In this document: positions 8,068 to 34,420 of the stretch, piece after piece | Layout: each line of letters opens with the position of its first letter | Numbering within the stretch: the stretch's first letter is position 1 | IMG/VR virus record: IMGVR_UViG_3300009788_000098 | Location: 1-64,000 of that record | From: a virus | Reading direction: 5' to 3' (one strand) | DNA length: 64,000 bases | The notes under the pieces: generated by a model | Database searches by the model: none | Told to the model about the DNA's origin: nothing | The model's input: only the letters and a program-made list of their open reading frames with translations | Made by a program: the position numbers and the translations under genes

Positions 8068-8636
8068 CAATCTGGCTGACTGCTGACCATCACGCAGGAC
8101 ATCACAATATCATTGAGTATACAAATCGCCCATTTGCTAATGTTGCAGAAATGGATAGCGAGCTTATCAGACGACACAATAAAGTAGTTGCCCAAAATGA
8201 AAGCGTATATATGCTAGGAGATGTAACTTTAGCTAACCTTGAGTACACATACAATTTCCTAAATCAACTTAATGGGACATTATACATTGTGCCAGGTGGA
8301 CATGACTACTGGATAGAGAAGCACAATAGACTTCCATCATCAGTAGAACTAGCATCAAAATTGCAACCCAACAAAGTAGTCATTCTGCCCTCACTATACA
8401 CACTTAAGCCAGTGTACACTCGATACCCTTCCTGCATCCTCTGCCACTTTGCTTTGCGCACTTGGCACAAATCCCACTATAACAGTTTTCACTTCCACGG
8501 ACACTCACATGGTCAGCTTCCGACAGCTTATAACTGCCTTGACGTAGGTGTCGATGTGCATAATTTCTATCCTATCAGCCTGGATAAAGCCTCAAAGAAA
8601 ATCGAGAAGAACAATGAAAACCTTGACAAAAACTAA
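8064..8636 (+). CDS. calcineurin-like metallophosphoesterase
   Basis: ADHHAGH, LGD, GGHD, HF, HGHSH, LDVGVD motifs. Confidence 0.88.
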   Translation: MTIWLTADHHAGHHNIIEYTNRPFANVAEMDSELIRRHNKVVAQNESVYMLGDVTLANLEYTYNFLNQLNGTLYIVPGGHDYWIEKHNRLPSSVELASKLQPNKVVILPSLYTLKPVYTRYPSCILCHFALRTWHKSHYNSFHFHGHSHGQLPTAYNCLDVGVDVHNFYPISLDKASKKIEKNNENLDKN

Positions 8637-8720
8637 CAACCAAACTACAATACATAAATACCCCCCAAGACAGGAAACTGTCTGCGTGCCGCCTGCTCAT
8701 TGTAGTGGGCGGTTGCGTGT
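8623..8720 (+). ncRNA. promoter plus small structured RNA (C-rich family member A)
   Basis: TTGACA-17-TACAAT, then ATAAATACCCCCC, AGACAG-GAAA-CTGTCT, GCCGCCTGCT-loop-AGTGGGCGGT. Confidence 0.6.
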
Positions 8721-8780
8721 ACTGAATAGCTGGCAGAGAGAAAGGGGCTGCTATAATCAGTCTTGCTACCTTGTCTGTTG

Positions 8781-10379
8781 TCACGTAATGTACCCCTGAC
8801 CTGCGAGCCAGACGCGCGCACGACCTTTCATGCACAACTTTGGCCCAACGAGAGCCTGCAAAACCGCGTCAGCTACATCAGTGGAACGTTTCAAGCGCTT
8901 GCGAATATCTTTCTTGCTCTCGACCTTGATAACCGCGTTACTCAGCACATCAAATTTGGGCGTAGTTAGTTCCCTCAATAATCTAGTATCTCGCGGTATC
9001 ATTACTTCTGTACCACCATTGGGATCAAACATCTCCCGACCAAGCCACCACATCGCGGCACGTTTATTTTGGAACTTGAACTCCTTGGTTTTGTCTTTGA
9101 GCGCAGTCTTTTCGGCAGCGTTGAAAGGAAGTGCTTTATCAGTATACCCTTGCTCTCTTAGTCTATCCAATACCCCTACGCCAATTCCAATTACGTCTAT
9201 AAAAGTGGGGGCGTGAAATGCGTCAATTATGCCTTTCAACCTTCCGGCAATTTCCATTGTTGCTGTCCCACTTCCCCCAGCTCCAAAAGACCTCGTTTCA
9301 AAAACCCTTGTATCGTCGTGACAAATTGCAATAACAGTATTGTCGCCACCCTCGCCGCCTAAGCCAATGTCGCACCCTACAGAAGTAACAGTTCCTCTGG
9401 GCGCACCATCGGCAATATCTCTTTGCCATTCATCCCACCTTGTCATGGCTTGCTCAACCCACTCCATCGGGATCAGAGTGTTAACATCAGCCTCTTTGAA
9501 CTCTCCGAGAACATGGTTGTGATATTGCTGACTGTCCTCTCCCCACTGCTTGCGTCTTTGTTCAGCCCACTCTTCAGTCATTCGACCTGATTTGATAGCA
9601 TCCTCACGCGTGATGTGAATTGTATGCCAGTCTTCGTATCCCAGTCTTCCCCGATGAATGTCAAAGAACCTTCCTGCTGGCTCTCCTGGCGTGCTGATTG
9701 CTAAGACTTTTGCAAATTGTTCGCCGCCACGACCTGACCCTGCAAAAGTCCCCTCAAATGAATCCCACACTTCAGTCGGGATGATTTTAGCTTCGTCAAA
9801 GACAAAAAACAGGTTATCACTATGCGCCCCCTCAAGTTTGGCAGGATCATCTGAACTAACCGCTAATGCCATTCCAGTACTCAATCGCAAACGCAACTTC
9901 TGCAATTCGTAACGATTGTCAAATGGCTCACGTCCAATTATGTCCCACCTTAACAAACGTGACCATTTGTGCAATTCCGGCCAGAGGTAATCCTCAAGCT
10001 GCGACCACGTAGACGCTGTGGTTAATGCTTTCCAGTCATTACCATCATTGGTAAGCGCAAAAGCCAAGACACACCACGCTGCGAGTGCGGTCTTGCCTAA
10101 AGTTCTTGGCCCACGTATAGCTTGGCGCTTATGGTCTGTCCAGTTCCCTAATATGTCTTCCTGATAAAAAGCTGGCCCATCGCCACCCGCTCTTTCCCAA
10201 TCTATGCAATCATGGACAAAAGCGACCCAATCATCTCGGTATGTGTTTTGGAACTGGCTATACTTGGCTCGTTCAATTTGGGCAACACCGCCAACCTTCT
10301 CAACTAGCTCTTTAGCTTTGCTTTCCTGAAGGGAGTGCCACTCCTGCTCGCTTAAAAAGTCCTTCAACGTCTTCTTCAT
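8781..10379 (-). CDS. terL: terminase large subunit
   Basis: Walker A GPRTLGKT, Walker B VFDEA, ISTP coupling motif, nuclease GCDIG...D, RSTDVADA. Confidence 0.93.
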   Translation of the reverse strand: MKKTLKDFLSEQEWHSLQESKAKELVEKVGGVAQIERAKYSQFQNTYRDDWVAFVHDCIDWERAGGDGPAFYQEDILGNWTDHKRQAIRGPRTLGKTALAAWCVLAFALTNDGNDWKALTTASTWSQLEDYLWPELHKWSRLLRWDIIGREPFDNRYELQKLRLRLSTGMALAVSSDDPAKLEGAHSDNLFFVFDEAKIIPTEVWDSFEGTFAGSGRGGEQFAKVLAISTPGEPAGRFFDIHRGRLGYEDWHTIHITREDAIKSGRMTEEWAEQRRKQWGEDSQQYHNHVLGEFKEADVNTLIPMEWVEQAMTRWDEWQRDIADGAPRGTVTSVGCDIGLGGEGGDNTVIAICHDDTRVFETRSFGAGGSGTATMEIAGRLKGIIDAFHAPTFIDVIGIGVGVLDRLREQGYTDKALPFNAAEKTALKDKTKEFKFQNKRAAMWWLGREMFDPNGGTEVMIPRDTRLLRELTTPKFDVLSNAVIKVESKKDIRKRLKRSTDVADAVLQALVGPKLCMKGRARVWLAGQGYIT

Positions 10380-10929
10380 TGAACTCTCCTTCTATCATCT
10401 CTTGCCCCTCGCGGTCACCCAGTGTCCCATCTCTAATAAGTTCAACAATTTTGCTACGGTAGTCGTCCACCTCAATGCGTGTTTTCCTGCCGAACTCACC
10501 GGGGTATTGTCGTTCTAGTAACCAGGCGTTTGCTTGCCACTGTTTTAGTCCAGCGTTCCTGATTTGTTCTAGCAGTAGCAGTTTGCGTAGAGGGCGTGCA
10601 CGCTCACTTTTGAGGAACAGGTCAAGGTACACTTTCTCATTTTCTAATACCTCTGCCATTTCCCCCGTATCCATCTCAAGTTTTGTTATGCGCTGGAACT
10701 CGTTATGCCCCCGCCGTCTCCATGAGCTGAGAGTGCCTGGCGAGATTTCCATTGCTCTAGCAGCATCGGCGTTGCTCAACCCAGCCCCTATAGCTTCGAT
10801 AATTGCCTTTACCATGTCGGGCGAGCATTTGCCTCGTCTACCGTAGAATGGGTCATATACCATGAGATCAGCAAACTTCTCATAGTAGTACTGTTGGTTT
10901 TCGTCACCATCGCTCATTCCATTATCCAT
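10312..10929 (-). CDS. terS: terminase small subunit
   Basis: HTH (AARAMEISPGTLSSW), WQANAWLLERQYP motif, directly upstream of terL. Confidence 0.8.
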   Translation of the reverse strand: MDNGMSDGDENQQYYYEKFADLMVYDPFYGRRGKCSPDMVKAIIEAIGAGLSNADAARAMEISPGTLSSWRRRGHNEFQRITKLEMDTGEMAEVLENEKVYLDLFLKSERARPLRKLLLLEQIRNAGLKQWQANAWLLERQYPGEFGRKTRIEVDDYRSKIVELIRDGTLGDREGQEMIEGEFNEEDVEGLFKRAGVALPSGKQS

Positions 10930-11023
10930 GACTTATCCTTGTTATAATCGTCAAAATGTGTTAGTATGATAATTGTAACACGGACGGTAAGAACTAACAA
11001 GAATGGAAATCTGAGGAGGAACG

Positions 11024-11881
11024 ATGCGAAAACTAGCTGTATTGGTATCAGACATGCACAGTGGGCATAAGTTAGGGCTTTGTAACCCTGATGCCAAAAT
11101 ACTGAACACTGCCGAGAACCCACCGAAAGAGCAAGGGGTGTGTCTTGTAGAATGGCAGGAGTACCTGTGGGATGTTGTTTACTCACCAGCAATAGAGAAA
11201 GTGGTGAAATTGGCAGGGAAAGATGAGATCATTGTGAACATCTTGGGGGATATAGTGCAGGGAAGTAAGTTTCCGAACCACCTTGTTGCGTTTGAGGAGA
11301 GCAACCATTGTAAGATTGCATACTATAACCTGCTGCCCTGGTTGAGTATTCCTAATGTACACACGATGCGCCTGACAACGGGAACGCCCACCCATGAGGG
11401 GGAGAACTTGAGTGCCGCGGTAACAGTTGCAGATGTGATACGCAATGAACGTGAGATTGACATAAAGGTAGCCCATCACTTTGAGTTGAACATTGACAAC
11501 TTTTTGCTTGATATTGCACATCACGGGGCGCACCCTGGTATTCGGCTACATACAAGAGGCAATATGTTGAGATATGAGATGGGGTCGGCGATTAGCGAGT
11601 ATATTGAGAATGGCGAAGTGCCGCCTGATTGTGTTGCGCGGGGTCATTTCCATATGCCCGTTGAGGAAACTATTACGCGGTTTCGCAACGACGAGATGAA
11701 GAAGTTTACCTATCTGTTGGTTCCATCGTTGACAGGGATGGTTCCCCATGCACGCAAAGTGACGAAATCAATTTCTAAGGTGACTAATGGTATTTGTGCG
11801 TTAGAGATCATTGATGGGAAGTTGGTCAATGTACATTGGTTCACGAAAACTATTGATACGCGGTACAAGGAGAAGGTATGA
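11024..11881 (+). CDS. metallophosphoesterase / Mre11-like nuclease
   Basis: SDMHSG, LGDIVQG, GTPTH, AHH, RGHFH motifs. Confidence 0.8.
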   Translation: MRKLAVLVSDMHSGHKLGLCNPDAKILNTAENPPKEQGVCLVEWQEYLWDVVYSPAIEKVVKLAGKDEIIVNILGDIVQGSKFPNHLVAFEESNHCKIAYYNLLPWLSIPNVHTMRLTTGTPTHEGENLSAAVTVADVIRNEREIDIKVAHHFELNIDNFLLDIAHHGAHPGIRLHTRGNMLRYEMGSAISEYIENGEVPPDCVARGHFHMPVEETITRFRNDEMKKFTYLLVPSLTGMVPHARKVTKSISKVTNGICALEIIDGKLVNVHWFTKTIDTRYKEKV

Positions 11882-12405
11882 CCTGCATTGTTGGAATTCA
11901 AAATGACAAAGGTTGTTGGATCGGAACAGATTCGTTTTCTGGAAGTGCTGATAGCAAAGGAATAATGAAAGAAGGGAAATTTGTTAGATGTGGAAAGTTT
12001 ACAATCGGATATACCACATCTTTCAGGATGGCGCAAATCATTGATAACTTGAACAAGAAACCAAAAACAATATATGAATTTTGTGAAGTTATACGTGACG
12101 CTCTCAAAGAAAAGGGATTTTCTGAAATAGATAACAATAAAGAGATTGGTGGCACAATGATTGTTAGTGACGGTATAGAAATGTGGCACGTTGGAAGTGA
12201 TTTTGCGTATACACAGGACAGTCGCAACTTATACGCTATTGGTTCTGGCTACGCCTATGCTCTTGGGGCTATGTTTGTTACTCGCAATGAATATCCTAAA
12301 CAGAGTGAAGATTGGATGTTGAGAGCAGGTCTTCAAGTTGCATCAGAGTGTATTCCAACAGTTATTTCCCCGTTTCATATCAGGAAAATTGAGGAGAAGG
12401 TGTAA
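11878..12405 (+). CDS. HslV/proteasome-like Ntn-hydrolase (Thr protease)
   Basis: N-terminal MTCIVG...IGTDS; AIGSGYAYALGAM. Confidence 0.75.
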   Translation: MTCIVGIQNDKGCWIGTDSFSGSADSKGIMKEGKFVRCGKFTIGYTTSFRMAQIIDNLNKKPKTIYEFCEVIRDALKEKGFSEIDNNKEIGGTMIVSDGIEMWHVGSDFAYTQDSRNLYAIGSGYAYALGAMFVTRNEYPKQSEDWMLRAGLQVASECIPTVISPFHIRKIEEKV

Positions 12406-12647
12406 TGGAAACAGACAAGCTGCTTGACCTGCTCAAGTACCAAGTGCCACCAACGCGCCCGCCCGGTATTGGCGTAACGGCAATTGAGTTCGCGGAAGTG
12501 CAGGGATGCGTTCCTAACACTGCCCGCCGCTTACTTATGAAAACCGATCTTGTTGGCGTAACGATGTTAGTTGACACGAAACATACCAAAGTATTCTTGC
12601 CAGCAGAAGATGTAGAGGCTAATGAACATTACAAAGCGTGGATATAA
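12405..12647 (+). CDS. small HTH-like protein
   Basis: TAIEFAEVQGCVPNTARRLL resembles an HTH. Confidence 0.5.
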   Translation: METDKLLDLLKYQVPPTRPPGIGVTAIEFAEVQGCVPNTARRLLMKTDLVGVTMLVDTKHTKVFLPAEDVEANEHYKAWI

Positions 12648-12656
12648 GGTTTACCC

Positions 12657-12685
12657 TTGACATTAGGTTTAGTTTGTGCTAATAT
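12657..12685 (+). promoter_or_regulatory. promoter of the recombination/replication operon
   Basis: TTGACA-17-TAATAT with TG. Confidence 0.65.
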
Positions 12686-12737
12686 ATAGATGTAAATGAC
12701 TTTTATCAATTATTGAATTCAAAAAGGAGAAAGTATA

Positions 12738-13541
12738 ATGGCAGATTTTTTAGATAACTGGACGGAGTGGGCAGATCAAGATGCAAGTGCAGCAGACAAG
12801 CGTGGAGTAAAGGTCAATTTTGGACAACTCACTATCAAGCCTTTTCGCTTTACCCACTGGCAAGATGACGGGAGTGGCAATCGAACACCTATTGAGGTTA
12901 AGCCAGAACAGTATGGCAACCTTCCTACAGGCAGTCGCAGTATGGACTTAGAATTCAGCATTAACGTGAAGGAATTCAATCCCTCATGGGAAAATCCATA
13001 TGAGCGCAGGTGCAGGATAGGCAGTAAAGATTGGTATGCCACGATCAGACCAAGTATTGAGGCTATACTTGGCAAAGGCTCAATGGCAGAAGGCAAGTAT
13101 AGCGGAACACTTGCTGACCTCAACGGGAAGTATGTTGAGACCAATGATGTGCCACAGAAAGAGAAAGACGGCACGGATAGCACTGAGTGGAACATGATAA
13201 AGCTAATAACGGTGTTCTCCAGTCGTAGCGAGTGCTTTGCCGCATGGCAGGAGCGTTTTGGTGGCAATGGTGAAGAGGCACCTACCGCTTCTGGTTTGGA
13301 CATGCCTGATATTTACGATGAGGCTTCATGGCGTGGTGCTCTTGTTGACATCAAGAAGGCACTAAATACTGGACAAACAGTTCAAGAAGTAGCTAAAGAT
13401 TATAGTGCCAGCAACAGACAAGTCTTGCAAGCGCTTACAGGCGAGATTAAGAAAGAACTTGATGCTGGCGTAACGGGCGTTGCTCTTGCACAACGTTATG
13501 ATGTTCACGTTTCTGACATCATGGCTATCAAGAGCGCGTAA
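12738..13541 (+). CDS. hypothetical protein, possibly ssDNA-binding, with C-terminal HTH-like repeats
   Basis: Own promoter and strong RBS; beta-rich N-domain, acidic linker; position before ERCC4/Sak4-like genes. Confidence 0.5.
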   Translation: MADFLDNWTEWADQDASAADKRGVKVNFGQLTIKPFRFTHWQDDGSGNRTPIEVKPEQYGNLPTGSRSMDLEFSINVKEFNPSWENPYERRCRIGSKDWYATIRPSIEAILGKGSMAEGKYSGTLADLNGKYVETNDVPQKEKDGTDSTEWNMIKLITVFSSRSECFAAWQERFGGNGEEAPTASGLDMPDIYDEASWRGALVDIKKALNTGQTVQEVAKDYSASNRQVLQALTGEIKKELDAGVTGVALAQRYDVHVSDIMAIKSA

Positions 13542-13594
13542 ACTCCTCCCTATAAAGGGCTACCTCAGAGATGGGGTAGCCCAAAGGAATCATT

Positions 13595-13798
13595 ATGATG
13601 AATGAAGAAAATGTTAGAATATTATGTGCCCTTTTTGTTTCTATCATTATAGGTCTTGTTATGCTAATAGCAATTACTCTTGTGCAGACCTTTGAAGGTA
13701 GTCTAGCAATGTATGTGGCTGGTGTCTTAACATGGCTAACATCATATGGCAGTTTGACATGGTATAAAAACTTTTTACAGAGGAAGCCACATGAGTGA
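13595..13798 (+). CDS. small membrane protein (2 TM)
   Basis: Two hydrophobic stretches. Confidence 0.6.
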   Translation: MMNEENVRILCALFVSIIIGLVMLIAITLVQTFEGSLAMYVAGVLTWLTSYGSLTWYKNFLQRKPHE

Positions 13799-13927
13799 AT
13801 TCTGGAAGTTTCTGAACAGAGTAATGAACCTGGTTGAGGGAATGATATCTCATCCAATTATGGTTCTGCTTCTCGTAGGGCCGACATGCTGGGTGACGCT
13901 TTGGATTGCGGTACAGGTGGCAAGCAA

Positions 13928-14248
13928 ATGATAAACGAAAAGTTACAAAAGAAGGTTGAATATATTATTGCAGGGATGGAAGACCATTCTTTCATTGAGA
14001 TTTTGGACGAACTTCTTGATGTCAAAGATGACGATGGCAAGCGAATTTTCTCAGTTGAGATTCGCACATTTTACAACACTGGAACTAGAAATCGTTATAT
14101 TGCAAAAGTTCGCAGACTTTATCCGTGTAATTGCGCAATAGAGACAGAATATCGCGGCACAGACTTGCCATTTGCTCTTTGGAGGGCTGTGACTGCAAAT
14201 ATTAACTTAATGGCCGCACAGAAGAATCATTTGAAGGAAAAGAAGTGA
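13928..14248 (+). CDS. hypothetical protein
   Basis: ATGA-coupled to an upstream 46-aa ORF at 13791-13931. Confidence 0.6.
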   Translation: MINEKLQKKVEYIIAGMEDHSFIEILDELLDVKDDDGKRIFSVEIRTFYNTGTRNRYIAKVRRLYPCNCAIETEYRGTDLPFALWRAVTANINLMAAQKNHLKEKK

Positions 14249-15078
14249 TATTCCTAGACGCATCTGAGACACGTACCAATACCACCATGCCCGACATTGA
14301 GGGTGTTGTCTCTATTCCCGACCTTGAAGCTCTTACAGGTGCAGACATGATGCTATCGTTGATGAAAGCACCTGCAATTACAGAGGTGCTGATAAAACGA
14401 CACGTTGCGAACGGTGCAATATTAGTACAACGTAAGCACGGACGAGACCTATCCTCAAGTGTCGGCGAGCGCATGAACAAAAGCCTTGCAAAGATGATTG
14501 AGGTTGGAACTAGATGTCCCTATCAGCGTGTCCTATTACATGTCGGTATAATGACTTGTAGTTCGGGCGATAAAGCGGTTATCAATAAGCAGCAGTCTCG
14601 CAAGCAATGGGTCTCGGTTCAAAGTGCAATTTCTAAGTGGCGTGGGCGCGGGGGAACATTCGAGTACATATCTCGTGCAACGTTATTGGAAAGATGGTGC
14701 AATATACAGCTACGTCAAATGCAAGAGTTCAAAGACAAACCGGTCAAGAAGTTCATGGCTGCTAAACCACTTGTGCAAGAGTTGGATGACTTCTTACAAG
14801 TGTTAGTGCCGGTGAACGATGGGCGAGTGCTACTTGCTTGTCTGCCTGGTATTGGGGCTAAGATGACATCTGTGTTACACAATGAGTTTGAACACGTGTA
14901 CGAGGCTCTGTGCTGGTTGACTGAGCCGACTAATGCAACCACTGGTAAGCGGATCAAGGGTGTGGGCGTAAAGACTATTGAGAATGTGCGTGGGTATCTT
15001 GAGCTGGATGATCCATTCCGGTTGAGTGTTGAGCCATCGCCGTTCTTGCTGGAACAATGGGAGAATAGAAATGAGTAA
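14245..15078 (+). CDS. ERCC4/XPF-type nuclease with HhH motifs (resolvase-like)
   Basis: IFLDASE, GADMM, VQRKHGRDLSSS; LPGIGAK and IKGVGVK HhH motifs. Confidence 0.75.
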   Translation: MIFLDASETRTNTTMPDIEGVVSIPDLEALTGADMMLSLMKAPAITEVLIKRHVANGAILVQRKHGRDLSSSVGERMNKSLAKMIEVGTRCPYQRVLLHVGIMTCSSGDKAVINKQQSRKQWVSVQSAISKWRGRGGTFEYISRATLLERWCNIQLRQMQEFKDKPVKKFMAAKPLVQELDDFLQVLVPVNDGRVLLACLPGIGAKMTSVLHNEFEHVYEALCWLTEPTNATTGKRIKGVGVKTIENVRGYLELDDPFRLSVEPSPFLLEQWENRNE

Positions 15079-15856
15079 AAGAGTAGAACTTGATAATGGG
15101 AAAATAGCATTACAACAAACAGGAACAAATAACGTTGATCTTGATGAGTATTTATATTATAAAATCAGATTACCACAGCTTCCTATTCGCGAAGAAGCCA
15201 TGAACAAAATAGACTTTGAGCAACTAGACAAGACAATAATGACAGATGATTTCTTCGTGGACGGCATAGAAGTACATGAACTCAAGGACTATAAGGCTTA
15301 TTTCAATCCAATTCCTGAAGAAATAGAGCCGAGTAAGTTCAAAATAGAAATAGTTGACTTGGGATCAGACTCAAGTTGCTCTTCCATGAGCAGGATATTA
15401 CGAAGCAATCTTTCTGTTGCTGATAAAGTTTGGTTAAATCTTGATTTTGAAGGTGCTATACGGTTTGCGCTGGAGAGACAATTGCGAAAATGGATAACGA
15501 AACATAGTGTCACTGATTTCTGGTGGTGTACACTTCCCGCACCCATTATCAATAAACCAACTTGTGGTTGTAGTGCTGAGTGTATTATGCAAAAAATCAT
15601 TAGGGTAAAAGAAACAAATACTTTCTTTACCTTTGCTCTGTATGGTAGTCATACTAGAAAAGAAAGAACATTAGTTAACTTTTGTTTCCAATTAGATATG
15701 CGTGTGTGTTTAGCAATCTATAAACAGGGAACAAAAACGCTTTATCAGGGAGACAAACTGTTTAAAAAGCGAACTGAATGTATTTGTTGCAAGTCTAAAA
15801 ATATTACAGAAGTCCATCGTCATCAGTGCATTGAATGTAAGGCAGAGTGGCTATGA
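15071..15856 (+). CDS. hypothetical protein with C-terminal Zn ribbon
   Basis: CICC...CIEC; AT-richer than neighbours. Confidence 0.55.
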   Translation: MSKRVELDNGKIALQQTGTNNVDLDEYLYYKIRLPQLPIREEAMNKIDFEQLDKTIMTDDFFVDGIEVHELKDYKAYFNPIPEEIEPSKFKIEIVDLGSDSSCSSMSRILRSNLSVADKVWLNLDFEGAIRFALERQLRKWITKHSVTDFWWCTLPAPIINKPTCGCSAECIMQKIIRVKETNTFFTFALYGSHTRKERTLVNFCFQLDMRVCLAIYKQGTKTLYQGDKLFKKRTECICCKSKNITEVHRHQCIECKAEWL

Positions 15857-19457: not shown

Positions 19458-19460
19458 GAT

Positions 19461-24845: not shown

Positions 24846-24873
24846 GTGCAATAATTATAAAACGGACAACAAT

Positions 24874-25816: not shown

Positions 25817-25863
25817 GCTTATTGATTTTAGTCCCAACAGGAAGGAGATAGGGAGTATTTTTT

Positions 25864-26811
25864 ATGGAAATGGTAAAAGAAGAGTTCAATTTGGTGGAGT
25901 TGCTGGAGGGCAGCTACGGTGACTATCGGGAGGCGGAGCCAGAACCAGACAACTGGTTTGACTTATTGGATGACCGCGTCTTTGAGGTTACCAGTGATAT
26001 GGAAGACGCTCTCAGAGACATGGACAGACGGAAAGAGCTGGATGAACGGCGTTTATCTCGTATAGCTGACTGTGGGAACTGGGCTTATTGGTTTGATCCG
26101 CACGCCGGGTCAATGAAAACGTATAAGTTTCGTTGTGACCTGTTCCGTGAGTGTCCAAAGTGCTTGGAGCAGAGAGCTAAGGCTGAATTCAAGCAGTGGC
26201 GAAAGGTAATGTACGAGCCAGTTGCCCACTTCACAATGGATAGTGGTGAAACGGATAGTTGGCTACGTAAAGCTGGCGCAAAGAAGAGTGATTATGTCAG
26301 ATACCCACAGAAAGACGGGACTGATGTGTTACTCGTGCAAAGAGATTTAATTCCTGACGCATCACTCGTCGGCCCTGAATGGTATCACCAACAGGATTGG
26401 ACAAAGATTATGGACACGCCTGAAGGTCGTAACCGTTCTGGAACGCTGCACGCTGGCCCACCCCCAAGTGGTAAGGAAGAGTACACGGTTATCACGACCA
26501 TGCAATTCCTCACAACCGCTGATTGGGTAGTGACAGCAGAAGCTATGCGACAGGTCATTGAGGACACAGGACATTATCGCCCTACAGAACCTCAACATGT
26601 TGTATCTTGTCTCACAGATCGCACGAACAAGACTGTTGCGAAGCTTTTAGCTGCTGGCTATGAGATCACGATCTACAAGAAGAAGTTCAAGCTGATACAC
26701 AGTAAGATTTCGTGGGATAATATAGATATACATACGGAAAATCTTACCAAAGTTCCGCTTCATGTATTGCACAAAAGACGGCAAAAACGGCTCGTCGCAG
26801 GTCTAATCTAG
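25864..26811 (+). CDS. putative replication (Rep-like) protein with Zn-binding motif
   Basis: RIADCG...FRCDLFRECPKC resembles the Cys cluster at the N-terminus of rolling-circle Rep proteins; function inferred. Confidence 0.45.
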   Translation: MEMVKEEFNLVELLEGSYGDYREAEPEPDNWFDLLDDRVFEVTSDMEDALRDMDRRKELDERRLSRIADCGNWAYWFDPHAGSMKTYKFRCDLFRECPKCLEQRAKAEFKQWRKVMYEPVAHFTMDSGETDSWLRKAGAKKSDYVRYPQKDGTDVLLVQRDLIPDASLVGPEWYHQQDWTKIMDTPEGRNRSGTLHAGPPPSGKEEYTVITTMQFLTTADWVVTAEAMRQVIEDTGHYRPTEPQHVVSCLTDRTNKTVAKLLAAGYEITIYKKKFKLIHSKISWDNIDIHTENLTKVPLHVLHKRRQKRLVAGLI

Positions 26812-26894
26812 CAAATTAGCCTACTTAGTCCATAAGTAGCGATAGTTGAAGGTCAACCGATGGTGGAAAGTAACAGGGAGATAGGTAAACTGAC

Positions 26895-26923
26895 TTGCAT
26901 ATTTTGTCAAGATATGGTATTAT
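26895..26923 (+). promoter_or_regulatory. promoter, probably producing a leaderless mRNA
   Basis: TTGCAT-17-TATTAT with TG; ATG 7 nt after the -10 box; shares TGTCAAGAT.TGGTATTATAGTGTA with 28361. Confidence 0.6.
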
Positions 26924-26929
26924 AGTGTA

Positions 26930-27562
26930 ATGATTGAATTAGATAGTGGTTTCCAATTGCATTTGGGAGATTGTTTACAAATTATGAAGGGTATGCCTGG
27001 TGGTTCTGTGGATGCGGTGGTTACCGACCCGCCGTATGGAATAGGACGAGTATGGAAAGGCGGTGCTTCATGTGGTTGGGCATCCGCACAGAAACAGACA
27101 TCCAAAAGGAACGAATGGGATGATAAACCACCCTCAAAAGAAGTATTTGATACTATTCTGTCCACTGGCAACACGGTGATTATATGGGGCGGGAATTACT
27201 TTGAATTGCCTACATCTCGCGGGTGGCTTGTATGGGTAAAGCCAGAGAGGGGCTTCACATTATCCGAGGCTGAGTTAGCATGGACTAATATGGATATGCC
27301 AATGAGAGTATTTGAGCATCGGCGCTCTGATAGAGGGCGTGTCCATCCTACACAGAAACCGCTTGGTTTAATGAAGTGGTGTATAACAAAATACACAAAA
27401 GAGAGCGACACCGTCCTCGATCCCTTTATGGGCAGTGGAACAACGGGAGTAGCCTGTCACTTGACGGGACGTAACTTTATCGGCATTGAAATTGATCCTG
27501 ATTACTTTGCCATAGCAGAGAAACGCATTCGAGAAGTGCAGATGCAACCGTTATTATTTTGA
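26930..27562 (+). CDS. DNA methyltransferase (N6-A/N4-C, beta class)
   Basis: TDPPY, IIWGGNYF, HPTQKP, DPFMGSGTT. Confidence 0.92.
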   Translation: MIELDSGFQLHLGDCLQIMKGMPGGSVDAVVTDPPYGIGRVWKGGASCGWASAQKQTSKRNEWDDKPPSKEVFDTILSTGNTVIIWGGNYFELPTSRGWLVWVKPERGFTLSEAELAWTNMDMPMRVFEHRRSDRGRVHPTQKPLGLMKWCITKYTKESDTVLDPFMGSGTTGVACHLTGRNFIGIEIDPDYFAIAEKRIREVQMQPLLF

Positions 27563-27777
27563 AAGGAGAAGTTATGAACGTTATGAACGGAGGATACCCA
27601 ATGCCAGATGAATTTGACCCCGATAACCTAGATACTGATAGACAGTTGACAGAGGTACTGGAAGAACAGAACAAAGAATTGAAAGCCGAGGTTGAGAGGC
27701 TGAAGAAATTATTGAAAGAAGCAATTTATCGCACCGATGCGCCTGCTGGTGAAGATTGTCTAGGGTGGCAAGGCTAA
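27559..27777 (+). CDS. hypothetical coiled-coil protein
   Basis: AEVERLKKLLKE segment shared with the 27951 ORF. Confidence 0.6.
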   Translation: MKGEVMNVMNGGYPMPDEFDPDNLDTDRQLTEVLEEQNKELKAEVERLKKLLKEAIYRTDAPAGEDCLGWQG

Positions 27778-27906
27778 AGAGTGGCGGAAATGAATCCTAT
27801 ATTTGCCTACATAATTACAGTTGCCGTGTGTAGTATAATATTCACCGTGCTTCTCACCATCTTCATTTATTGCGGCCTTGAAGAAGACTGGGGAGATTGG
27901 GATTGA

Positions 27907-27954
27907 ATGGTTGAACTAGAGAACGGATTTCAGTTGTACAGGAGTGTAAGATGA
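27907..27954 (+). pseudogene. vestigial 5' end of a DNA methyltransferase
   Basis: MVELENGFQL then ACAGGAGTGTAA junction. Confidence 0.6.
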
Positions 27955-28316
27955 GGATACCGATAAAAGCGTTGAAGGAGATTGCAAAGAAATATAGCCT
28001 TTCTCACATTATTTTATTTGCTTATCACCCGAATAGTAAAGAACACCATATCGCCTCTTATGGCAAATCACTGGAGGGGTGTTCCCAAGCAGCAGATTTT
28101 AGCAATACGTTAAGGGAAGCGCTAGGATGGCCTGAAGCATTACTTGTACAACCATCACGAGTAAAGAAATTGCAAGTCGAGGTTGAGGGGTTGAAGGAAT
28201 TATTAAAACAAGTTGCTCAGCATGTTAGTACTGATAATATTGGAGCCGGGTCAGCTTTAGTTTGTGACACTCTTCAAAAATTGATGAGAGACAATTATTT
28301 TTATGAACAAAAATAG
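27951..28316 (+). CDS. hypothetical protein
   Basis: AGGAG RBS. Confidence 0.7.
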   Translation: MRIPIKALKEIAKKYSLSHIILFAYHPNSKEHHIASYGKSLEGCSQAADFSNTLREALGWPEALLVQPSRVKKLQVEVEGLKELLKQVAQHVSTDNIGAGSALVCDTLQKLMRDNYFYEQK

Positions 28317-28336
28317 CTTCTGATACCCGGAAGGAA
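28309..28336 (+). repeat. 28-bp direct repeat, copy 1
   Basis: AAAAATAGCTTCTGATACCCGGAAGGAA, identical at 30076. Confidence 0.9.
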
Positions 28337-28349
28337 GTGAGTGGCTTGC

Positions 28350-28378
28350 TTGACACAACTGTCAAGATGTGGTATTAT
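28350..28378 (+). promoter_or_regulatory. promoter with inverted repeat over -35
   Basis: TTGACA-17-TATTAT; TTGACA-CAAC-TGTCAA inverted repeat. Confidence 0.8.
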
Positions 28379-28398
28379 AGTGTAGCATATGATATAAA

Positions 28399-28510
28399 GC
28401 GGTAACCACACCGTCAAGTGGGTGGAAAGCCCACACCTCCCCCTTACCCTGTTGGGAATTGGATGGCAGTTATAGTAGCTTACTGAGTGCGAACCTCAAC
28501 CATCCAACTA
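28399..28510 (+). ncRNA. structured leader with T-loop-like hairpins / tRNA-like element
   Basis: TTGGATGG/CCATCCAA stem enclosing AGTTA-TAG-TAGCT and TGAG-TGCGAAC-CTCA; upstream GTGGG-TGGAAAG-CCCAC. Confidence 0.4.
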
Positions 28511-28539
28511 CAAGGACACCGTTGAACGAAGGAGAAACC

Positions 28540-28728
28540 ATGATTGACTTGCAATATGTACACAAATGTCCACGATGTAATAATCTTTACTCTGATGAAC
28601 GATTGTGGGAGCTTATTACAAATATGAAAACACCCGATGCTCTCATAAAAGAGTATAAGATTGACGCATGTCCTGTATGTGTTGTAACAAAAGGCATTAT
28701 AAAGGTAGTGAAATCATTTCAGGAATGA
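28540..28728 (+). CDS. Zn-finger hypothetical protein
   Basis: CPRC...CPVC; AAGGAG RBS. Confidence 0.65.
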   Translation: MIDLQYVHKCPRCNNLYSDERLWELITNMKTPDALIKEYKIDACPVCVVTKGIIKVVKSFQE

Positions 28729-28937
28729 AGGAGAAGATAATGGGAACAATGACTTTATTTATATGTGATTTGTGTGGCAAAAAGTGCGAGGGCAAACTTT
28801 CGGAATACCCACTTAAAGATGACTTCTGCTACATTGACTTTCGTTCACTTGGCGAAAAACGTAGAGTAGAAAATATTCTTGCGTGTGACAGATGTATGAA
28901 TGAATTTGATAAGCTGTTAGCTACACTAAGGACATAA
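28725..28937 (+). CDS. Zn-finger hypothetical protein
   Basis: CDLC...CDRC; similar pattern to 37444. Confidence 0.65.
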   Translation: MKEKIMGTMTLFICDLCGKKCEGKLSEYPLKDDFCYIDFRSLGEKRRVENILACDRCMNEFDKLLATLRT

Positions 28938-28939
28938 CC

Positions 28940-29305
28940 ATGATAACATTCCGAACGGGAGACGTAGTTGAGATCAACAATGTGCCAGGCAAAGTTGTAC
29001 GCACAAAGAGTAGGCAGCTCATTGTAGAGCCGTTACCGAAGTACACCTATGCCAATGGGGTCATGCAGTTTGACGAGGAGGACATAGAGCAAGCAGGGAA
29101 GTTCTTGGAAATCACATTCATGCGCTTGCACACCGAAATAACGAACCTGATATCGCTGGTTGAGCTTGCATTGCGAGCTGATGTGCAATATAAACAGCAC
29201 TACATATATCTGTTAGCGCAAGCAATTGGGGTTGAGATGGGCGGTATTGATAGAGGTGAGATACCGCACTATGAGGAGGAAGAAGACAATGGCGAGGACA
29301 GTTAG
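28940..29305 (+). CDS. hypothetical protein
   Basis: ORF track. Confidence 0.6.
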   Translation: MITFRTGDVVEINNVPGKVVRTKSRQLIVEPLPKYTYANGVMQFDEEDIEQAGKFLEITFMRLHTEITNLISLVELALRADVQYKQHYIYLLAQAIGVEMGGIDRGEIPHYEEEEDNGEDS

Positions 29306-29511
29306 TTCTATGAGATGTTTGACGCTCATGTCAACTTCAGACCGATATTATCCTAAGTTTGCCCAGTTCTCGTTTTACGAAGTGCGTTCTGGGCTACCTA
29401 GAGATAACTGGCCTGCTGGGACTATATTTCGGGATGGGCGTGGGCATTTGCGACATGTTCGGAGAGGTAAGAAAGGCGGGTTGATACTGGTGAAGGGGGG
29501 CGGGAGGTCGG

Positions 29512-29958
29512 ATGGACATAAGAGGACACTTGATGATGGTGGTCATAGCTTGCTTATTAGTGGGACTGGCGGGATGTGCTGACCCAGTGGTATTTGAAGC
29601 AGTTCGAGACACAGTCGGGCTGCAAGAAGCAACATTGGGTATGTGGTCAACTGAGTTGTTTTACGATGGGGCACATTACTTTGGAGTAACCCCGCTCTCT
29701 CAACAGACGTATTGGATACGGTCTACAATTGAGGGCGTGATTACAGACTGCGGGGTGAACGGGAATATCTGCAACATTGCCGATGTGCCAATGACCGGTG
29801 TTGAATGGCATATGTTGCCGGAAACAGTCAAGGCGGGAATGGTGAATTTTGTTCTGACTGTGATTGACAATGCACAGTACGTGAACGCCTGGTTGATGAT
29901 TATACCAGTAGGCGAGTTTGATATCTTTGATGTAATAGCACCGAGAGAGAAGACGTGA
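29512..29958 (+). CDS. putative lipoprotein
   Basis: Hydrophobic signal with LAGC lipobox. Confidence 0.6.
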   Translation: MDIRGHLMMVVIACLLVGLAGCADPVVFEAVRDTVGLQEATLGMWSTELFYDGAHYFGVTPLSQQTYWIRSTIEGVITDCGVNGNICNIADVPMTGVEWHMLPETVKAGMVNFVLTVIDNAQYVNAWLMIIPVGEFDIFDVIAPREKT

Positions 29959-30075
29959 TGGTTATTAATAAGTGAATGATGAGCAAAACAATTACGTGTA
30001 AAAAATGCAGATGGATTTTTGATGGTCGATGGTGTCCAAAGTGTGGTTGGGATAGAGCGTCAAAATATGAGGAAG

Positions 30076-30103
30076 AAAAATAGCTTCTGATACCCGGAAG
30101 GAA
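30076..30103 (+). repeat. 28-bp direct repeat, copy 2
   Basis: Identical to 28309-28336. Confidence 0.9.
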
Positions 30104-30109
30104 AGGAGA

Positions 30110-30310
30110 ATGATGATGACTGATATGTATATTGTTGAAATTGATGACAGGAGATATGAGATAGCTCTTGAGGTTGCGGAATTGATAAAAGGTCAAGGGG
30201 AAGAGCTCGAGGAGTTGAAGACTGAGAATGAAAGTTATAAACTTCAATGTGATATGCTGCAAAAATTAGTAAGGGCAACTTCAAAGGAATTGAAGGAAAG
30301 CGAGGACTAA
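30110..30310 (+). CDS. coiled-coil hypothetical protein
   Basis: GAAAGGAG RBS. Confidence 0.65.
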   Translation: MMMTDMYIVEIDDRRYEIALEVAELIKGQGEELEELKTENESYKLQCDMLQKLVRATSKELKESED

Positions 30311-30311
30311 A

Positions 30312-31067
30312 ATGACTGATAGAGTAATAGGACTGGATGTGTCCCGTTGGCAGGACAATCCCTACACCCCACAGGAGATTGACTTTGTAAAAGCGCGCGA
30401 GAATGGAACTGATTTTGTGTTCATCCGTGCCGGATTGGATAACACGGTAGACATAAACTTTGCCGATGCGTGGAGGGATGCGAAGAAGGCAGGGCTGTTG
30501 CGGGGGAGCTATTGGTATTATGATTACCGGTTCAATGCCTGGGCACAGTCCCAGAAGTATATTGGCACACTAGACGGTGATTATGGCGAGTTACCCCTGG
30601 TCGTTGATTTAGAAAAGAAGCGGGGCACAAAATATCCGAATCGCATGGCTTATCTTGTTGGCATCAAGGATTTCTTAGAAGGGCTAGAATTGCACATATC
30701 TGATAACCACTCAATAATGATTTATCTCAACCGCGGACTGATAAACTATCTCAAGCCCATACCTGAATGGCTGTTGGCATATGACCTTTGGATAGCCTGG
30801 TACCCGAACGCCTGGGCAAGGTTGCGGAATAGACAGCCCAAGGTATCACCATGGAAAAGGTACACGCTATGGCAGCACACAGATAGAGCGGATGGTCACG
30901 CATATGGCATGGAAAGTCGCCAGGTAGACGAGAACTACTTCAACGGTTCATGGGAAGAGTTGCAGAACTACGCCACACATATCTCAATTGAGCCACCTAC
31001 ACCGCAACCGCCTACAGAGCTAACTAACCAGGAGAAGTTAGACAGGCTATGGGAGATGCACCAGTAA
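30312..31067 (+). CDS. GH25 muramidase (endolysin)
   Basis: GLDVSRWQ, FVFIRA, LVVDLE, LWIAWY, LWQHT, VDENYF. Confidence 0.88.
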   Translation: MTDRVIGLDVSRWQDNPYTPQEIDFVKARENGTDFVFIRAGLDNTVDINFADAWRDAKKAGLLRGSYWYYDYRFNAWAQSQKYIGTLDGDYGELPLVVDLEKKRGTKYPNRMAYLVGIKDFLEGLELHISDNHSIMIYLNRGLINYLKPIPEWLLAYDLWIAWYPNAWARLRNRQPKVSPWKRYTLWQHTDRADGHAYGMESRQVDENYFNGSWEELQNYATHISIEPPTPQPPTELTNQEKLDRLWEMHQ

Positions 31068-31177
31068 TGTGTTATAATGGTACACTATGGACACAAAATT
31101 ATGGGACACAATACTATGCGTGATATTCGTGATTGCGGTTGTGGTGATAATTGTGCTTGCGGTGCTGGTGACATAGC

Positions 31178-32113
31178 ATGAAGATACTAATCACCGGCGG
31201 CGCAGGGTTCATTGGATCACACGTTGCAGACGTACTTGTCAGGCGTGGCGATAGAGTATTCACCATTGACAATTATACTACTGGGCGCTTTGAGAATACT
31301 AATGAAAGAACATTCGTCTTCGATGATAATATTGCCAATGGGCTTGCTGTCAGGGAGATATTTGAGAGCATTCGCCCCGATGTAGTTGTCCATGCTGCTG
31401 CGTCTTATGATGATCCTGATAATTGGTTCAGGGATGCAACAACCAACGTGTGCGGGACTATCAATGCGGTCAAGATAAGTGATACATTTGATGTAAAGCG
31501 GTTTGTATATCTACAGACCGCACTGTGCTATGGGCTAAAACCAGAGACGCAACCCATCCCGATTGACCATGTCCTAAACCCAGTTGGCAGTTTCGCAATT
31601 TCCAAAGTGGCAGGCGAGAGATACGTGATGGAGAGCGACCTTGATTGGGTATCGTTAAGGTTAGCTAACGTCTACGGGCCGAGAAGCGTGAGTGGGCCTG
31701 TACCGGCGTTCTGGAAGCGATTGAGCGAAGGCAAAGAGTGTTTTGTAGCGGATAGTCGTAGGGACTTCATCTATGTTGATGACGTGATACGTGTGATTGT
31801 GAAAGCTATCGACGGAAAGGGGGAAAGTGGTGTGTACCACGTGGCAACTGGACAAGATTGTCCGATACTAACATTGTATCAAGAGATAGTAGCTGCAATG
31901 GGATTGGATATGCCCGACCCTGAAGTGCAGAAACGAAGCCCTGATGACGCGGCCACTATACTGCTAGATGCAACTGAAACAAGGGTGGACTTTGACTGGG
32001 ATGCCGTGACACCACTGGACTTCGGTGTGCGGAAGGCAATTGCTTGGTACGAGGAGTGGGGTGTTGAGAAGACGTTTACGCATCTGGGCGACAAGGATAA
32101 TGGGAACCACTGA
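31178..32113 (+). CDS. NAD-dependent epimerase/dehydratase (GalE-like SDR)
   Basis: ITGGAGFIG, RLANVYGP, RDFIYVDD; FAISK in place of YxxxK. Confidence 0.88.
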   Translation: MKILITGGAGFIGSHVADVLVRRGDRVFTIDNYTTGRFENTNERTFVFDDNIANGLAVREIFESIRPDVVVHAAASYDDPDNWFRDATTNVCGTINAVKISDTFDVKRFVYLQTALCYGLKPETQPIPIDHVLNPVGSFAISKVAGERYVMESDLDWVSLRLANVYGPRSVSGPVPAFWKRLSEGKECFVADSRRDFIYVDDVIRVIVKAIDGKGESGVYHVATGQDCPILTLYQEIVAAMGLDMPDPEVQKRSPDDAATILLDATETRVDFDWDAVTPLDFGVRKAIAWYEEWGVEKTFTHLGDKDNGNH

Positions 32114-32124
32114 GGGAGAATAGT

Positions 32125-32388
32125 ATGACAGAAGAAGCACTAATAAGTATTCTTATGGGTACGCCAATCATAACGGAAGATTGTACTATCAAGCGTATTG
32201 ATATACAGAAACACCCCTGCCCCTACTGCCACGGCATCACGTATGACGACAGTCGAGGGCATTGTTGCGGGTGCGGTGCGCCACGAGAACAAGAGAAACC
32301 ACCGCGAGGGCTTACGTTGATGAAGGGCGTTGAGAGTGCCACGCTCAAAGACGCGATGCTATCAGCTTGGTGGGAAGTTGCCAAGTAA
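32125..32388 (+). CDS. Zn-ribbon hypothetical protein
   Basis: CPYC...CCGCGAP. Confidence 0.65.
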   Translation: MTEEALISILMGTPIITEDCTIKRIDIQKHPCPYCHGITYDDSRGHCCGCGAPREQEKPPRGLTLMKGVESATLKDAMLSAWWEVAK

Positions 32389-32484
32389 CACACAAACCGC
32401 CCCACATGAGCGGGGCAGCTTGCGCCAAAGTTTCCTTTGGGTGGGGGATTATAGGATTTTAACACACAAGTAGAAATTTGTCAA
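32389..32484 (-). ncRNA. promoter plus small structured RNA (C-rich family member B)
   Basis: TTGACA-17-TAAAAT, then CCTATAATCCCCCAC, CCAAAG-GAAA-CTTTGG, GCTGCCCCGC-TCAT-GTGGGGCGGT. Confidence 0.6.
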
Positions 32485-32777
32485 GGAGAGATATGGTAGA
32501 CGAATTGTCAGATGTAATGGGAAAGAAGTTGGTTGATGCTGAAGGATATGTGCCTGAAGGTGACGATTTACATTTTGAGATTACCAAGTTTATTTTTGAG
32601 GATGGAACAGAAGCATTTGCTGAGGGTAGCCACGATACTGTATCGTTGTCATCATATTCTAAAAACAATGAGTATGAATTATCCAATGAAAATCTTGAGA
32701 AATGGCAAATATGTAATAATTGCGGAAATAGAATGATGTACGATGGCAATAAATGGATATGTAGTGCATGGGTATAG
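32478..32777 (+). CDS. hypothetical protein with C-terminal Zn ribbon
   Basis: AAGGAG RBS (likely start MVDELS); CNNC...CSA. Confidence 0.6.
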   Translation: MSRRDMVDELSDVMGKKLVDAEGYVPEGDDLHFEITKFIFEDGTEAFAEGSHDTVSLSSYSKNNEYELSNENLEKWQICNNCGNRMMYDGNKWICSAWV

Positions 32778-34345
32778 CAATACCAGACAACCCCAGCGAC
32801 ATAGGCGTTCCCCACAATGAGTGGCGACGAGGACAGCGTTCTCTATTGGAGTCCTTTATACATAGCAAGGCAGAGTACGTCTTTACAGAAATTCCAACGG
32901 GCACGGGCAAGAGCGGGGTTGCGTGTGCTCTAGGTCACTACAACAACGTCACGGTCTGCGTACACACATTGGCACTACTCACCCAATACGAGAACCAGTA
33001 CGGGTTTTCAGTCGTGCGTGGCAAGCAAGAATACAATTGTGCTAATGTTGAGAAGGTTGATGCTTGGAGAGGGTTGCACAAGATAGTCCCGACTGTTGCT
33101 GATTGCACTTATAGTCCTATGAACAATTGTGAGTATTATTCTTATTGCCCTTATCCACGTGCTAAACACCGTGCAACGCTTGCGGAACGATCCGCTTGTA
33201 CCTATCGCTACATGGCATTGTCTGAGAGGATGCAAAATCGTAACGGGTTTTTAGTATTTGATGAAGCTCACGATGCAGCAGAGGAGCTTATTGCTTTCAA
33301 TCAGTTTGAGCTTGTCAACCGCAGATTGCAGAAGCATAAATTGCCATTGTTTCCTATACAAGAGTTTGGGGAAGATAACAAAGGGGATGTTGTGACACCT
33401 GTAGAACGAGGGGCGTTGCACAGATGGTTGCGTGAGTGTATCGGTCTGCTCAAAGTTGAAGCAGGTGACGAGAGCCGTGAAGCTGCTACAAGGAAACGCA
33501 TGGAGAGCAGATTCATACGTATCGGTGGCGAGATAGCATCTGATGATTGGTTCTTGCATATCACGGACAAAGGCTTCACTGTTTAGGCATTGAGTGCGCG
33601 CAGGATTGCGACCATAGTATCTGAGAAGAAAAGGCGTAAGTTGCTGATGAGTGCTACAATTGGCAAGCCGGCTCCCCTTGCGGGGGCATTAGGGATTAAG
33701 AACTATCAATCATATTCGCTTCCCCATCCTGTACCAGCTAAATACCGCCCTGTAGATGATTTAGGTGTGCCACGCATGACGCATCGTAATCTTGTACAGC
33801 AAGGTGATGGTCTGTTTGATGTGCAGGCAGGGTGCATCTGGGAGTGGGTTAGTATGTTTCCGAAACACTGGCGTGGTGTTATACTGACAACCAGTTACTA
33901 TAAGATAGAACAAATAGCTAAACGATCACAGGGCAGAGGTCGCAGGTTGCTTGTCCAAGAACGGGGGGTGAAGGTCGGTGACGTAGTGAAACAGTTCATC
34001 AGCGATATGCGAGACGGCGATGTTATGATTGGCACAATACAAGGCATGGGAACGGGCATTGATTTGTTTGGCGACATTGCTCGGTGGTTGGTCATTGCTG
34101 GTGTTCCGCATGTAAACCCGACTGATAGGTATATGAAAGCTAGACGTGACAAGGACGGGGGAGCGCACTATCAACGTTGGTTGACGTACAATGCGGTTGT
34201 ACAGGCAGCAGGGCGTATCAGCAGGGGCGAACTGTTAGATGACGGCTCGTTTATGACGAACTATGTTGCGATTGCTGATGGGTCTGCGATGACGGCTACT
34301 GCGTTGAGGTTCTATCCTGAGTGGTTCAAGGAAGCAATACAATAA
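32768..34345 (+). pseudogene. DinG/XPD-like Fe-S helicase interrupted by one in-frame TAG (33584-33586)
   Basis: WRRGQ Q motif, PTGTGKS, Cys cluster, DEAH; after GTT TAG GCA the frame continues with MSAT, GIDL, QAAGRISR. Confidence 0.8.
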
Positions 34346-34420
34346 TTGACATTCAAACCAAAACATGCTATACTCCTATAATCACCCCCCCCACTAGCCC
34401 TGCCCGTTGGCGGGGTTTTT
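34346..34420 (+). ncRNA. promoter plus ~45-nt C-rich small RNA with terminator (family member C)
   Basis: TTGACA-17-TATACT, CCTATAATCACCCCCCCC, AGCCCTGCC-CGTT-GGCGGGGTT-TTT. Confidence 0.55.

Follow-up and report, generated by a model that had tools for sequence, protein, structure and literature searches.

Three short non-coding units, designated A, B and C, were identified in the first 64,000 nt (hereafter the window) of IMG/VR virus record IMGVR_UViG_3300009788_000098, the genome of an uncultivated phage. Each consists of a promoter followed at once by a run of cytosines and by one or two hairpins (Table 1), and the units show signs of common descent. They are tentatively interpreted here as self-contained small-RNA genes, with predicted transcripts that would carry a single-stranded, C-rich tail at the 5' end, a reading derived from sequence analysis. 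The complete record (rated as such in IMG/VR) comprises 85,243 bp with ends that overlap by 123 bp, and the phage stretch is present in one subsurface-metagenome DNA run, which may be where it came from.

Anatomy of the units

The units were found at the positions and on the strands where a first-pass annotation of the window had placed them. In each, TTGACA and TAnnnT are separated by 17 nt and are followed by an ATAA(A)T box and a C-run. We infer that transcription starts at the A lying 7 nt past the -10 element, within the ATAA(A)T box (positions 8658, 32449 and 34381). The predicted RNAs would thus open with AUA-C6 (A), AU-C5-A-C3 (B) and AUCA-C8 (C), the run of five to eight cytosines beginning from about +3/+5. 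In the minimum-energy folds of A and B the leader is unpaired and is followed by a small GAAA-capped hairpin (hairpin 1), which abuts a longer hairpin (hairpin 2) with no spacer between them. Hairpin 2 had been recognised in the first-pass annotation, its extent being given there as too short: it reaches 14 bp in A and 15 bp in B and is rich in G.U pairs. Unit C was correctly described as a leader plus one hairpin only, its fold comprising a GC-rich hairpin and U5. In a 50-nt fold of C, the last three cytosines of the run and an A pair with UGGG past the U-tract, which lies outside the predicted 42-nt RNA.

No coding potential was detected in units A to C. The small open reading frames (ORFs) within them have no start codon with a ribosome site, and by eye the frames are not common to A and B. 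No length variants of the C-run of B or C were seen among the contigs of the DNA run, contigs being a form of data that drops rare variants.

Signs of selection on the RNA

The folds of the units are specific to one strand. On the strand of the predicted RNA, z-scores of -4.1 (A), -6.9 (B) and -2.6 (C) were obtained, while the opposite strands gave -0.6, -0.9 and -0.1, respectively. For A and B, this asymmetry arises because five of the 14 pairs of hairpin 2 in A and four of the 15 in B are G.U pairs; strand-specific folds so rich in G.U argue for selection on RNA of that strand and not on DNA. It had also been noted that hairpin 1 differs between A and B at three of its six pairs, and this holds: all three changes are compensatory and the GAAA loop is kept.

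The association of these elements and the relatedness of the units both exceed chance. A run of at least five C is present within 22 nt at three of the 27 promoter-like sites genome-wide (binomial P 0.003). Local alignment of A with B scored 40 (shuffle maximum of 33 in 200 shuffles) and that of B with C scored 33 (shuffle maximum of 31); the alignment of A with C was not significant (31, shuffle maximum of 40). MAFFT misaligned A and B, and a covariance model was therefore seeded from B alone. Genome-wide, A is the only further unit that this model recovers (25.8 bits, E 9e-05); the one match apart from that is the mirror image of B's own hairpin. The observation reported in the first-pass annotation is confirmed, and the feature is non-random, with signatures at the RNA level.

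A fourth, partial copy and the second promoters

A fourth, partial copy (D), which is absent from the first-pass annotation, is located outside the window at genome positions 80936-80955. Here the 20-nt C-rich box of unit C, a 20-mer that takes in the whole unpaired leader of the predicted C RNA, recurs exactly (20/20), while the flanks are near random identity. Alignment of C with D scored 70 against a shuffle maximum of 36, and the homology continues through the second promoter described below, with genome positions 80936-81110 being paralogous to that region of C. The C-run is common to A, B, C and D. The promoter of D is decayed, reading by eye as TTGAGC, a 19-nt spacer and TAAAAG, and D possesses neither a terminator nor a significant fold (z +0.4). 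It lies 54 nt past a C5-cytosine methylase gene, itself preceded by an HNH endonuclease gene, and about 50 nt before the consensus promoter of a hairpin RNA, of which the 12-nt loop complements the GTGAAAGGAG-type ribosome sites of the phage.

A TG-extended promoter-like site (P2), likewise not recorded before, follows each of the four copies on the same strand within 45 nt. There are 38 such sites genome-wide on both strands, and the probability of A and B both being followed by one by chance is about 1e-4. At C and D, P2 drives real products, unlike at A and B (Table 1).

Table 1. Positions of the elements of units A, B and C and of their second promoters in the window
Feature	Position	Strand	Description
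Unit A promoter P1	8623..8651	+	TTGACA-17-TACAAT, scores 11/12
Unit A predicted RNA	8658..8720	+	about 63 nt; fold -27.9 kcal/mol
Unit A leader	8658-8667	+	unpaired AUA-C6-A
Unit A hairpin 1	8668-8683	+	6 bp, GAAA loop
Unit A hairpin 2	8684-8718	+	14 bp, 5 G.U, one bulged U
Unit A P2	8730..8757	+	CTGGCA-16-TATAAT with TG; points into the terL 3' end, on the other strand
Unit B P2	32356..32384	-	TTGGCA-17-TAGCAT with TG; inside the 3' end of plus-strand gene 32125-32388
Unit B predicted RNA	32387..32449	-	about 63 nt; fold -35.2 kcal/mol, frequency of the minimum-energy fold 0.72
Unit B hairpin 2	32424-32391	-	15 bp, 4 G.U; tail UGUU
Unit B hairpin 1	32440-32425	-	6 bp, GAAA loop
Unit B leader	32449-32441	-	AU-C5-AC
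Unit B promoter P1	32456..32484	-	TTGACA-17-TAAAAT with TG, 11/12
Unit C promoter P1	34346..34374	+	TTGACA-17-TATACT with TG, 11/12
20-nt C-rich box of C	34379..34398	+	begins 2 nt ahead of the predicted start and reaches the hairpin foot
Unit C predicted RNA	34381..34422	+	about 42 nt; leader, GC-rich hairpin, U5; fold -23.1 kcal/mol
Unit C hairpin core	34398-34415	+	
Unit C P2	34446..34474	+	TTGACT-17-TATACT with TG; drives gene 34513 and a sugar-gene cluster

Genome setting and neighbouring genes

The genome has a G+C content of 45% and, on a gene map drawn by codon usage, 125 genes. Plus-strand genes occupy about 0.2 to 50 kb and minus-strand structural genes 50 to 79 kb, with terS-terL (identified through PHROGs) forming a small minus-strand island at 10929-8781. 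Promoters of the phage are near-consensus and of sigma-70 type, and its ribosome sites are GTGAAAGGAG-like. No close relative is known from the large terminase, TerL, for which the highest identities are 43% among isolated phages, 50% among IMG/VR contigs and 58% among metagenome contigs. The kin of TerL in genomes are spread across Chloroflexota, Actinomycetota and other metagenome-assembled genomes (MAGs), and the host was not identified from them. A Pfam scan took in 40 of the approximately 125 predicted proteins.

Copies A, C and D each follow closely on the stop of a plus-strand gene. The phosphoesterase gene upstream of A has its stop codon (8634-8636) inside the spacer of P1 of A, and P1 of C starts directly after the stop of a helicase gene (34343-34345). 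Unit A converges on terL, the stop of which is 61 nt past hairpin 2, so that A is antisense to any 3' tail of the terL message. Unit B is placed between two plus-strand genes and points against both, the -35 element of its P1 overlapping the ribosome site of the second (32493-32777). The codon score of this plus-strand gene is 0.25, and that of the minus frame overlapping it is -0.11. B is complementary over its full length to plus-strand RNA from 59 nt ahead of the start codon of that gene, and no plus-strand terminator was found in the B region by folding and by terminator scan.

No co-oriented gene is present downstream of A, where terL is on the opposite strand, or of B, where there are plus-strand genes only. 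As common functions of the units, operon leaders, attenuators and Q- or put-type gates are therefore unlikely, and, with A and B oriented against their neighbours, discrete RNAs of about 42 to 63 nt fit better than operon leaders. A promoter lies directly upstream of each unit, and neither cas genes near the units nor a toxin gene beside them were found.

Several other features of these regions were recorded. Positions 32456-32495, which hold the promoter of B and the ribosome site of gene 32493, also occur with six differences in a 32,388-nt contig of the same DNA run; this contig has a similar depth (17.6 versus 18.5) and flanks that are unlike, and it may represent a co-occurring related phage. 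The XPD/DinG-like helicase ahead of C is divided by a TAG stop at 33584-33586 into ORFs 32768-33586 and 33590-34345 of the same frame. In an 85,150-nt contig of the DNA run holding the phage this codon is CAG, and the split may reflect either sequence variation or a difference in assembly. Within the divergent control region (10930-11023) of the terS-terL island there is a promoter-like site at 11000-10972 (-) and, by eye, TGnTATAAT at about 10941-10949 (+) for gene 11024. Short repeats of AGATTCC type are clustered at 5680-5960, a stretch poor in ORFs with a C10 run at 5727. At 28350-28540, a leader of about 190 nt with a C-rich stretch separates a consensus promoter from a 62-aa gene; the fold of this leader is not significant (z -0.5). 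Finally, at 63066-63171 (-) and at genome positions 73281-73383 (-), a promoter, a common leader and a T7-8 terminator are found before structural operons. Their leader is unlike those of A, B and C; the flank of A has just the 9-mer ACTGAATAG in common with them, which could be chance.

Searches for homologues

No description of the family was found in literature searches or in Rfam. A scan of the window with Rfam gathering thresholds gave no matches, so that candidate hammerhead ribozymes at 3353-3404 and 5286-5335 went unrecognised at those thresholds, and scans of the units by E-value gave chance-level matches only, with no CRISPR-DR family in the units at E up to 10; one CRISPR-DR57 match (E 2.4) is inside the helicase gene. 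Megablast of positions 8000-12000 against phages produced no match. Pattern searches of IMG/VR returned seven stretches for a pattern derived from the hairpins, none with the promoter or C-run (0/7), none for the exact 20-mer, one unrelated stretch for the promoter plus CCTATAATC and two for the promoter, box and C5, neither with hairpins.

Relatives were also sought through neighbouring genes. Anchoring on TerL yielded six IMG/VR loci (43-50%), 13 metagenome loci (up to 58%) and 44 genome loci. The phosphoesterase gave one locus (27%), and the C-terminal part of the helicase none. A comparable unit is absent from five regions downstream of terL (loci L017, L022, L002, L018 and L020), and a scan of 29 loci for a C-run plus a GNRA hairpin returned only A itself (L001, the phage's own region) and a chance match in L012.

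A covariance model built from A and B and run over 520,236 bases of retrieved loci matched A, B and five weak candidates at E 0.0077-0.25, three of which were inspected (two in L062 and one in L008; those in L077 and L073 were left out). Both L062 matches fall in apparent coding sequence with many broken pairs. The candidate in L008, with its counterpart in L009, had been taken for a two-hairpin homologue and proved to be a permuted tmRNA gene, the pattern having matched the tag reading frame. This gene (L008 3171-3493, identical in L009) is located on unrelated AT-rich viral contigs and encodes a permuted alpha-type tmRNA with the tag GEGNFALAA, called by ARAGORN and scoring 80-82 bits with Rfam. 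The same model gave no match in five MAGs, and its matches in two of 151 Chloroflexota genomes are ordinary gene-end terminators that have neither the leader nor hairpin 1.

Termination

In A and B, hairpin 2 takes up most of the U-rich tail and is not a textbook terminator. The core hairpin of B, with the tail UUUGUGUGUU, was listed by the terminator scan, and the hairpins of A and C were not; we suppose that the hairpin of C was missed since two U are drawn into the stem on folding. The C hairpin would also end the upstream plus-strand operon. Hairpins with an extended stem like hairpin 2 end genes in the two Chloroflexota genomes matched by the covariance model, and this counts for the small-RNA reading.

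Proposed mode of action

If the units are small-RNA genes, a host RNA polymerase of sigma-70/sigma-A type would initiate at the A conserved in the ATAAT box, producing an RNA that opens with 9 to 17 unpaired, C-rich nucleotides, AU first and C5-C8 next. After this tail, A and B would have the GAAA-capped 6-bp hairpin, stacked directly on the long G.U-rich hairpin that would end the transcript; C would have only the GC hairpin and U5, giving products of the lengths listed in Table 1. The hairpins would supply stability and strand-specific termination. The C-rich tail would be the working part, either pairing with G-rich single-stranded RNA, such as host or phage ribosome-binding regions, or being held by a protein. 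Unit B would additionally be antisense, with a perfect match, to the intercistronic leader of gene 32493. Its G.U-rich hairpins would stop its own transcript and leave the RNA of the opposite-strand operon unstructured, so that the operon would be unhindered.

The RNA interpretation offered in the first-pass annotation is supported in part, by the strand-specific folds, the compensatory stems, the promoters, the lack of coding potential and the orientation of A and B. It is not supported as regards the targets of the tail, for which pairing with ribosome sites had been suggested: among 125 phage start regions, no target beats shuffled seeds. The best duplexes at these regions reached -16.8, -15.6 and -22.7 kcal/mol, and 47, 82 and 37 of 100 shuffled seeds, respectively, did equally well or better.

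This absence of phage targets weighs against the small-RNA reading, as do a number of other results. The only good complements of the units in the genome are their own opposite strands, and the GTGAAAGGAG-type sites of the phage itself are poor partners for a pure C-run. After its 9-bp core, the hairpin of A is followed by UUGCGUGU, a poor U tail that the scan did not find terminator-like. The covariation of hairpin 1 is equalled by 45 of 500 shuffles, a weak control given two sequences only. No homologue was found where searched, these negatives being samples and not proof of absence. Copy D, which keeps the 20-mer with neither a good promoter nor a hairpin, weakens the idea that the leader serves only as a promoter-made 5' end; given D, the C-box may act as DNA or within a longer RNA. 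Lastly, the presence of P2 behind all four copies points to a cis-regulatory cassette. A related idea, mimicry of the 16S 3' end by C, is unlikely: the A of GGAGG has no pairing partner in a C-run, and the sequence common to the two is presumably only AUCACC.

Alternative explanations

Such a cassette is a possible, if unlikely, account of the units. It would consist of P1, the C-box, the hairpin and P2 in tandem, with the C-box as the DNA site of a phage or host regulator, or with P2 occluded by polymerase that starts at P1 and stops at the hairpin (a NOT gate), and the short RNA would be a by-product. The C-box overlaps the start of P1 and, in C and D, is about 90-100 bp upstream of the P2 start. 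This arrangement would explain why a TG-extended P2 follows all of A, B, C and D at a frequency beyond chance, why the homology of C and D extends through P2 and why D retains the 20-mer with no working P1 or terminator. Moreover, in A and B the -35 element of P2 begins 3-10 nt after hairpin 2. The 20-mer, however, is neither palindromic nor repeated, unlike most operators, and its ends match those of the unpaired RNA leader. Measured from the predicted P2 start, the box centre is about 92 bp upstream in C and about 97 bp upstream in D, with the helical phase not kept, and P2 of A and B would yield only antisense to real genes. In addition, the G.U-rich stems and compensatory changes indicate selection on RNA, and the 40 proteins scanned in Pfam include no recognised regulator.

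It is rather improbable that the action of the RNAs of B and A is confined to the messages that they overlap, before gene 32493 and at the 3' end of terL, respectively. In that case, duplex formation and cleavage, or interference between convergent transcripts, would be the route of action, and the C-run would have no role as a seed. The full complementarity of B to the plus-strand RNA, the lack of a plus-strand terminator there and the way in which A faces terL are all in keeping with cis-antisense action. Unit C, however, has no converging transcript, and neither the C-rich start common to A, B, C and D nor the abutting two-hairpin design of A and B would be explained.

We think it improbable that the units have no dedicated function, being relics of a duplicated promoter-terminator segment at the ends of operons, with an accidental C-run. 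The position of A, C and D just past plus-strand gene stops would fit such an origin, as would the confinement of the family to one genome, and the hairpin of C is needed anyway to end the upstream operon. Mere relics would not be expected to keep a 20-mer at 20/20 amid flanks of near-random identity, to change their stems by compensatory pairs and to have promoters that still score 11/12.

Decoy and antitoxin roles had also been put forward in the first-pass annotation and were not borne out: no toxin gene adjoins the units, and nothing in them matches a CRISPR repeat. A decoy or sponge would mimic a host RNA (a Racr-like CRISPR repeat, or the site of a GGA- or C-binding protein) and titrate a host factor. 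The units do place a small hairpin RNA directly behind a promoter in several copies, and AGGA is present at the stem-loop junction of hairpin 1. Nevertheless, we consider this highly improbable: at E up to 10 the units are matched by no Rfam family, CRISPR-DR or other, and the stems of A and B differ and cannot both copy one repeat.

Very little credence is given to A and B as processive antiterminators of the put type, in which the double hairpin of about 63 nt would stay on the polymerase and allow it to read through terminators. The outcome would be long antisense transcripts over terS-terL and the middle genes, shutting those off. A and B do match put RNAs in size and in the form of two abutting hairpins, they are two covarying copies and hairpin 2 of A is a poor terminator. 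Against this, there is no co-oriented gene downstream of either unit, the hairpin of B with UUUGUGUGUU is terminator-like and C has no double hairpin; the likeness to put is one of form and size. A more elaborate version, hardly credible at present, would make A and B protein-independent antiterminators acting as an antisense timing switch, with the C-box marking licensed starts and with C and D as simplified derivatives. If true, two early promoters would become sources of long antisense RNA across the terminase genes and the middle-gene block. Reiterative transcription, or a promoter limited in escape at the C-run, was considered as well.

Significance and comparison with known systems

Should the RNAs exist, they would form an undescribed family of phage small RNAs, distinguished by a 5'-terminal tail made up almost wholly of C, by G.U-rich, strand-specific hairpins and by the reversed placement of one copy within an operon. 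An anti-Shine-Dalgarno hairpin RNA and the promoter-leader-terminator units before late operons mentioned above also seem to be present in the genome. If true, the phage would depend to a large extent on control at the RNA level, in a little-known host group of the subsurface. For the present the finding is of limited practical use, with one genome, no relatives and predicted RNAs.

In the Q gate of lambdoid phages (PR'-tR'), a strong promoter is followed at once by a terminator, giving a short RNA, and there is a -10-like box near the start. The units are similar in having a promoter, then a putative terminator hairpin, and a -10-like box by the start. Unlike in the Q gate, that box is at about -4 to +2 and not in the transcribed region, A and B face the wrong way, and only C has a co-oriented operon, which is served by its own promoter P2 (34446). 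No Q-like protein was found among the 40 proteins scanned.

The putL and putR sites are located directly behind early-type promoters, with two diverged copies per phage, and A and B would match them in both position and number. In phage HK022, put RNAs are described as double-hairpin RNAs of about 65 nt that mediate early gene expression by modifying RNA polymerase for terminator read-through (PMC8632103). Measured against that description, A and B share the two abutting hairpins within a predicted RNA of 63 nt; they differ in having no co-oriented genes to antiterminate, and in B the second hairpin is terminator-like. RNA anti-CRISPRs and solitary repeat units, as outlined in PMC10651486, are likewise phage-borne, promoter-proximal, ORF-free small hairpin RNAs. 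Compared with that outline, the units resemble no Rfam CRISPR repeat family and the stems of A and B differ.

The C-rich-box small RNAs of Gram-positive bacteria (RsaE/RoxS, other Rsa RNAs and the loops of RNAIII) offer a further comparison. An unpaired C-rich motif (UCCC) that binds Shine-Dalgarno regions is presented as the signature of the Rsa RNAs, of which RsaE of B. subtilis has 114 nt (PMC2790875). Relative to the RNAs as portrayed in that account, the C-run of the units is at the extreme 5' end and not in loops or internal linkers, and is near-pure C5-C8 in place of UCCC. The units are also phage-encoded and much shorter, match no Rfam family and gave no target beyond chance in the phage start regions. 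They resemble these RNAs in being short, with their own predicted promoter and a 3' hairpin (PMC2790875). As in that group and in the 6C small RNA of Actinobacteria, described with C-rich loops (PMC6486639), conservation is highest in an unpaired C-rich motif. It is plausible, if unproven, that A, B and C are an orphan within a known kind, the small RNAs of phages.

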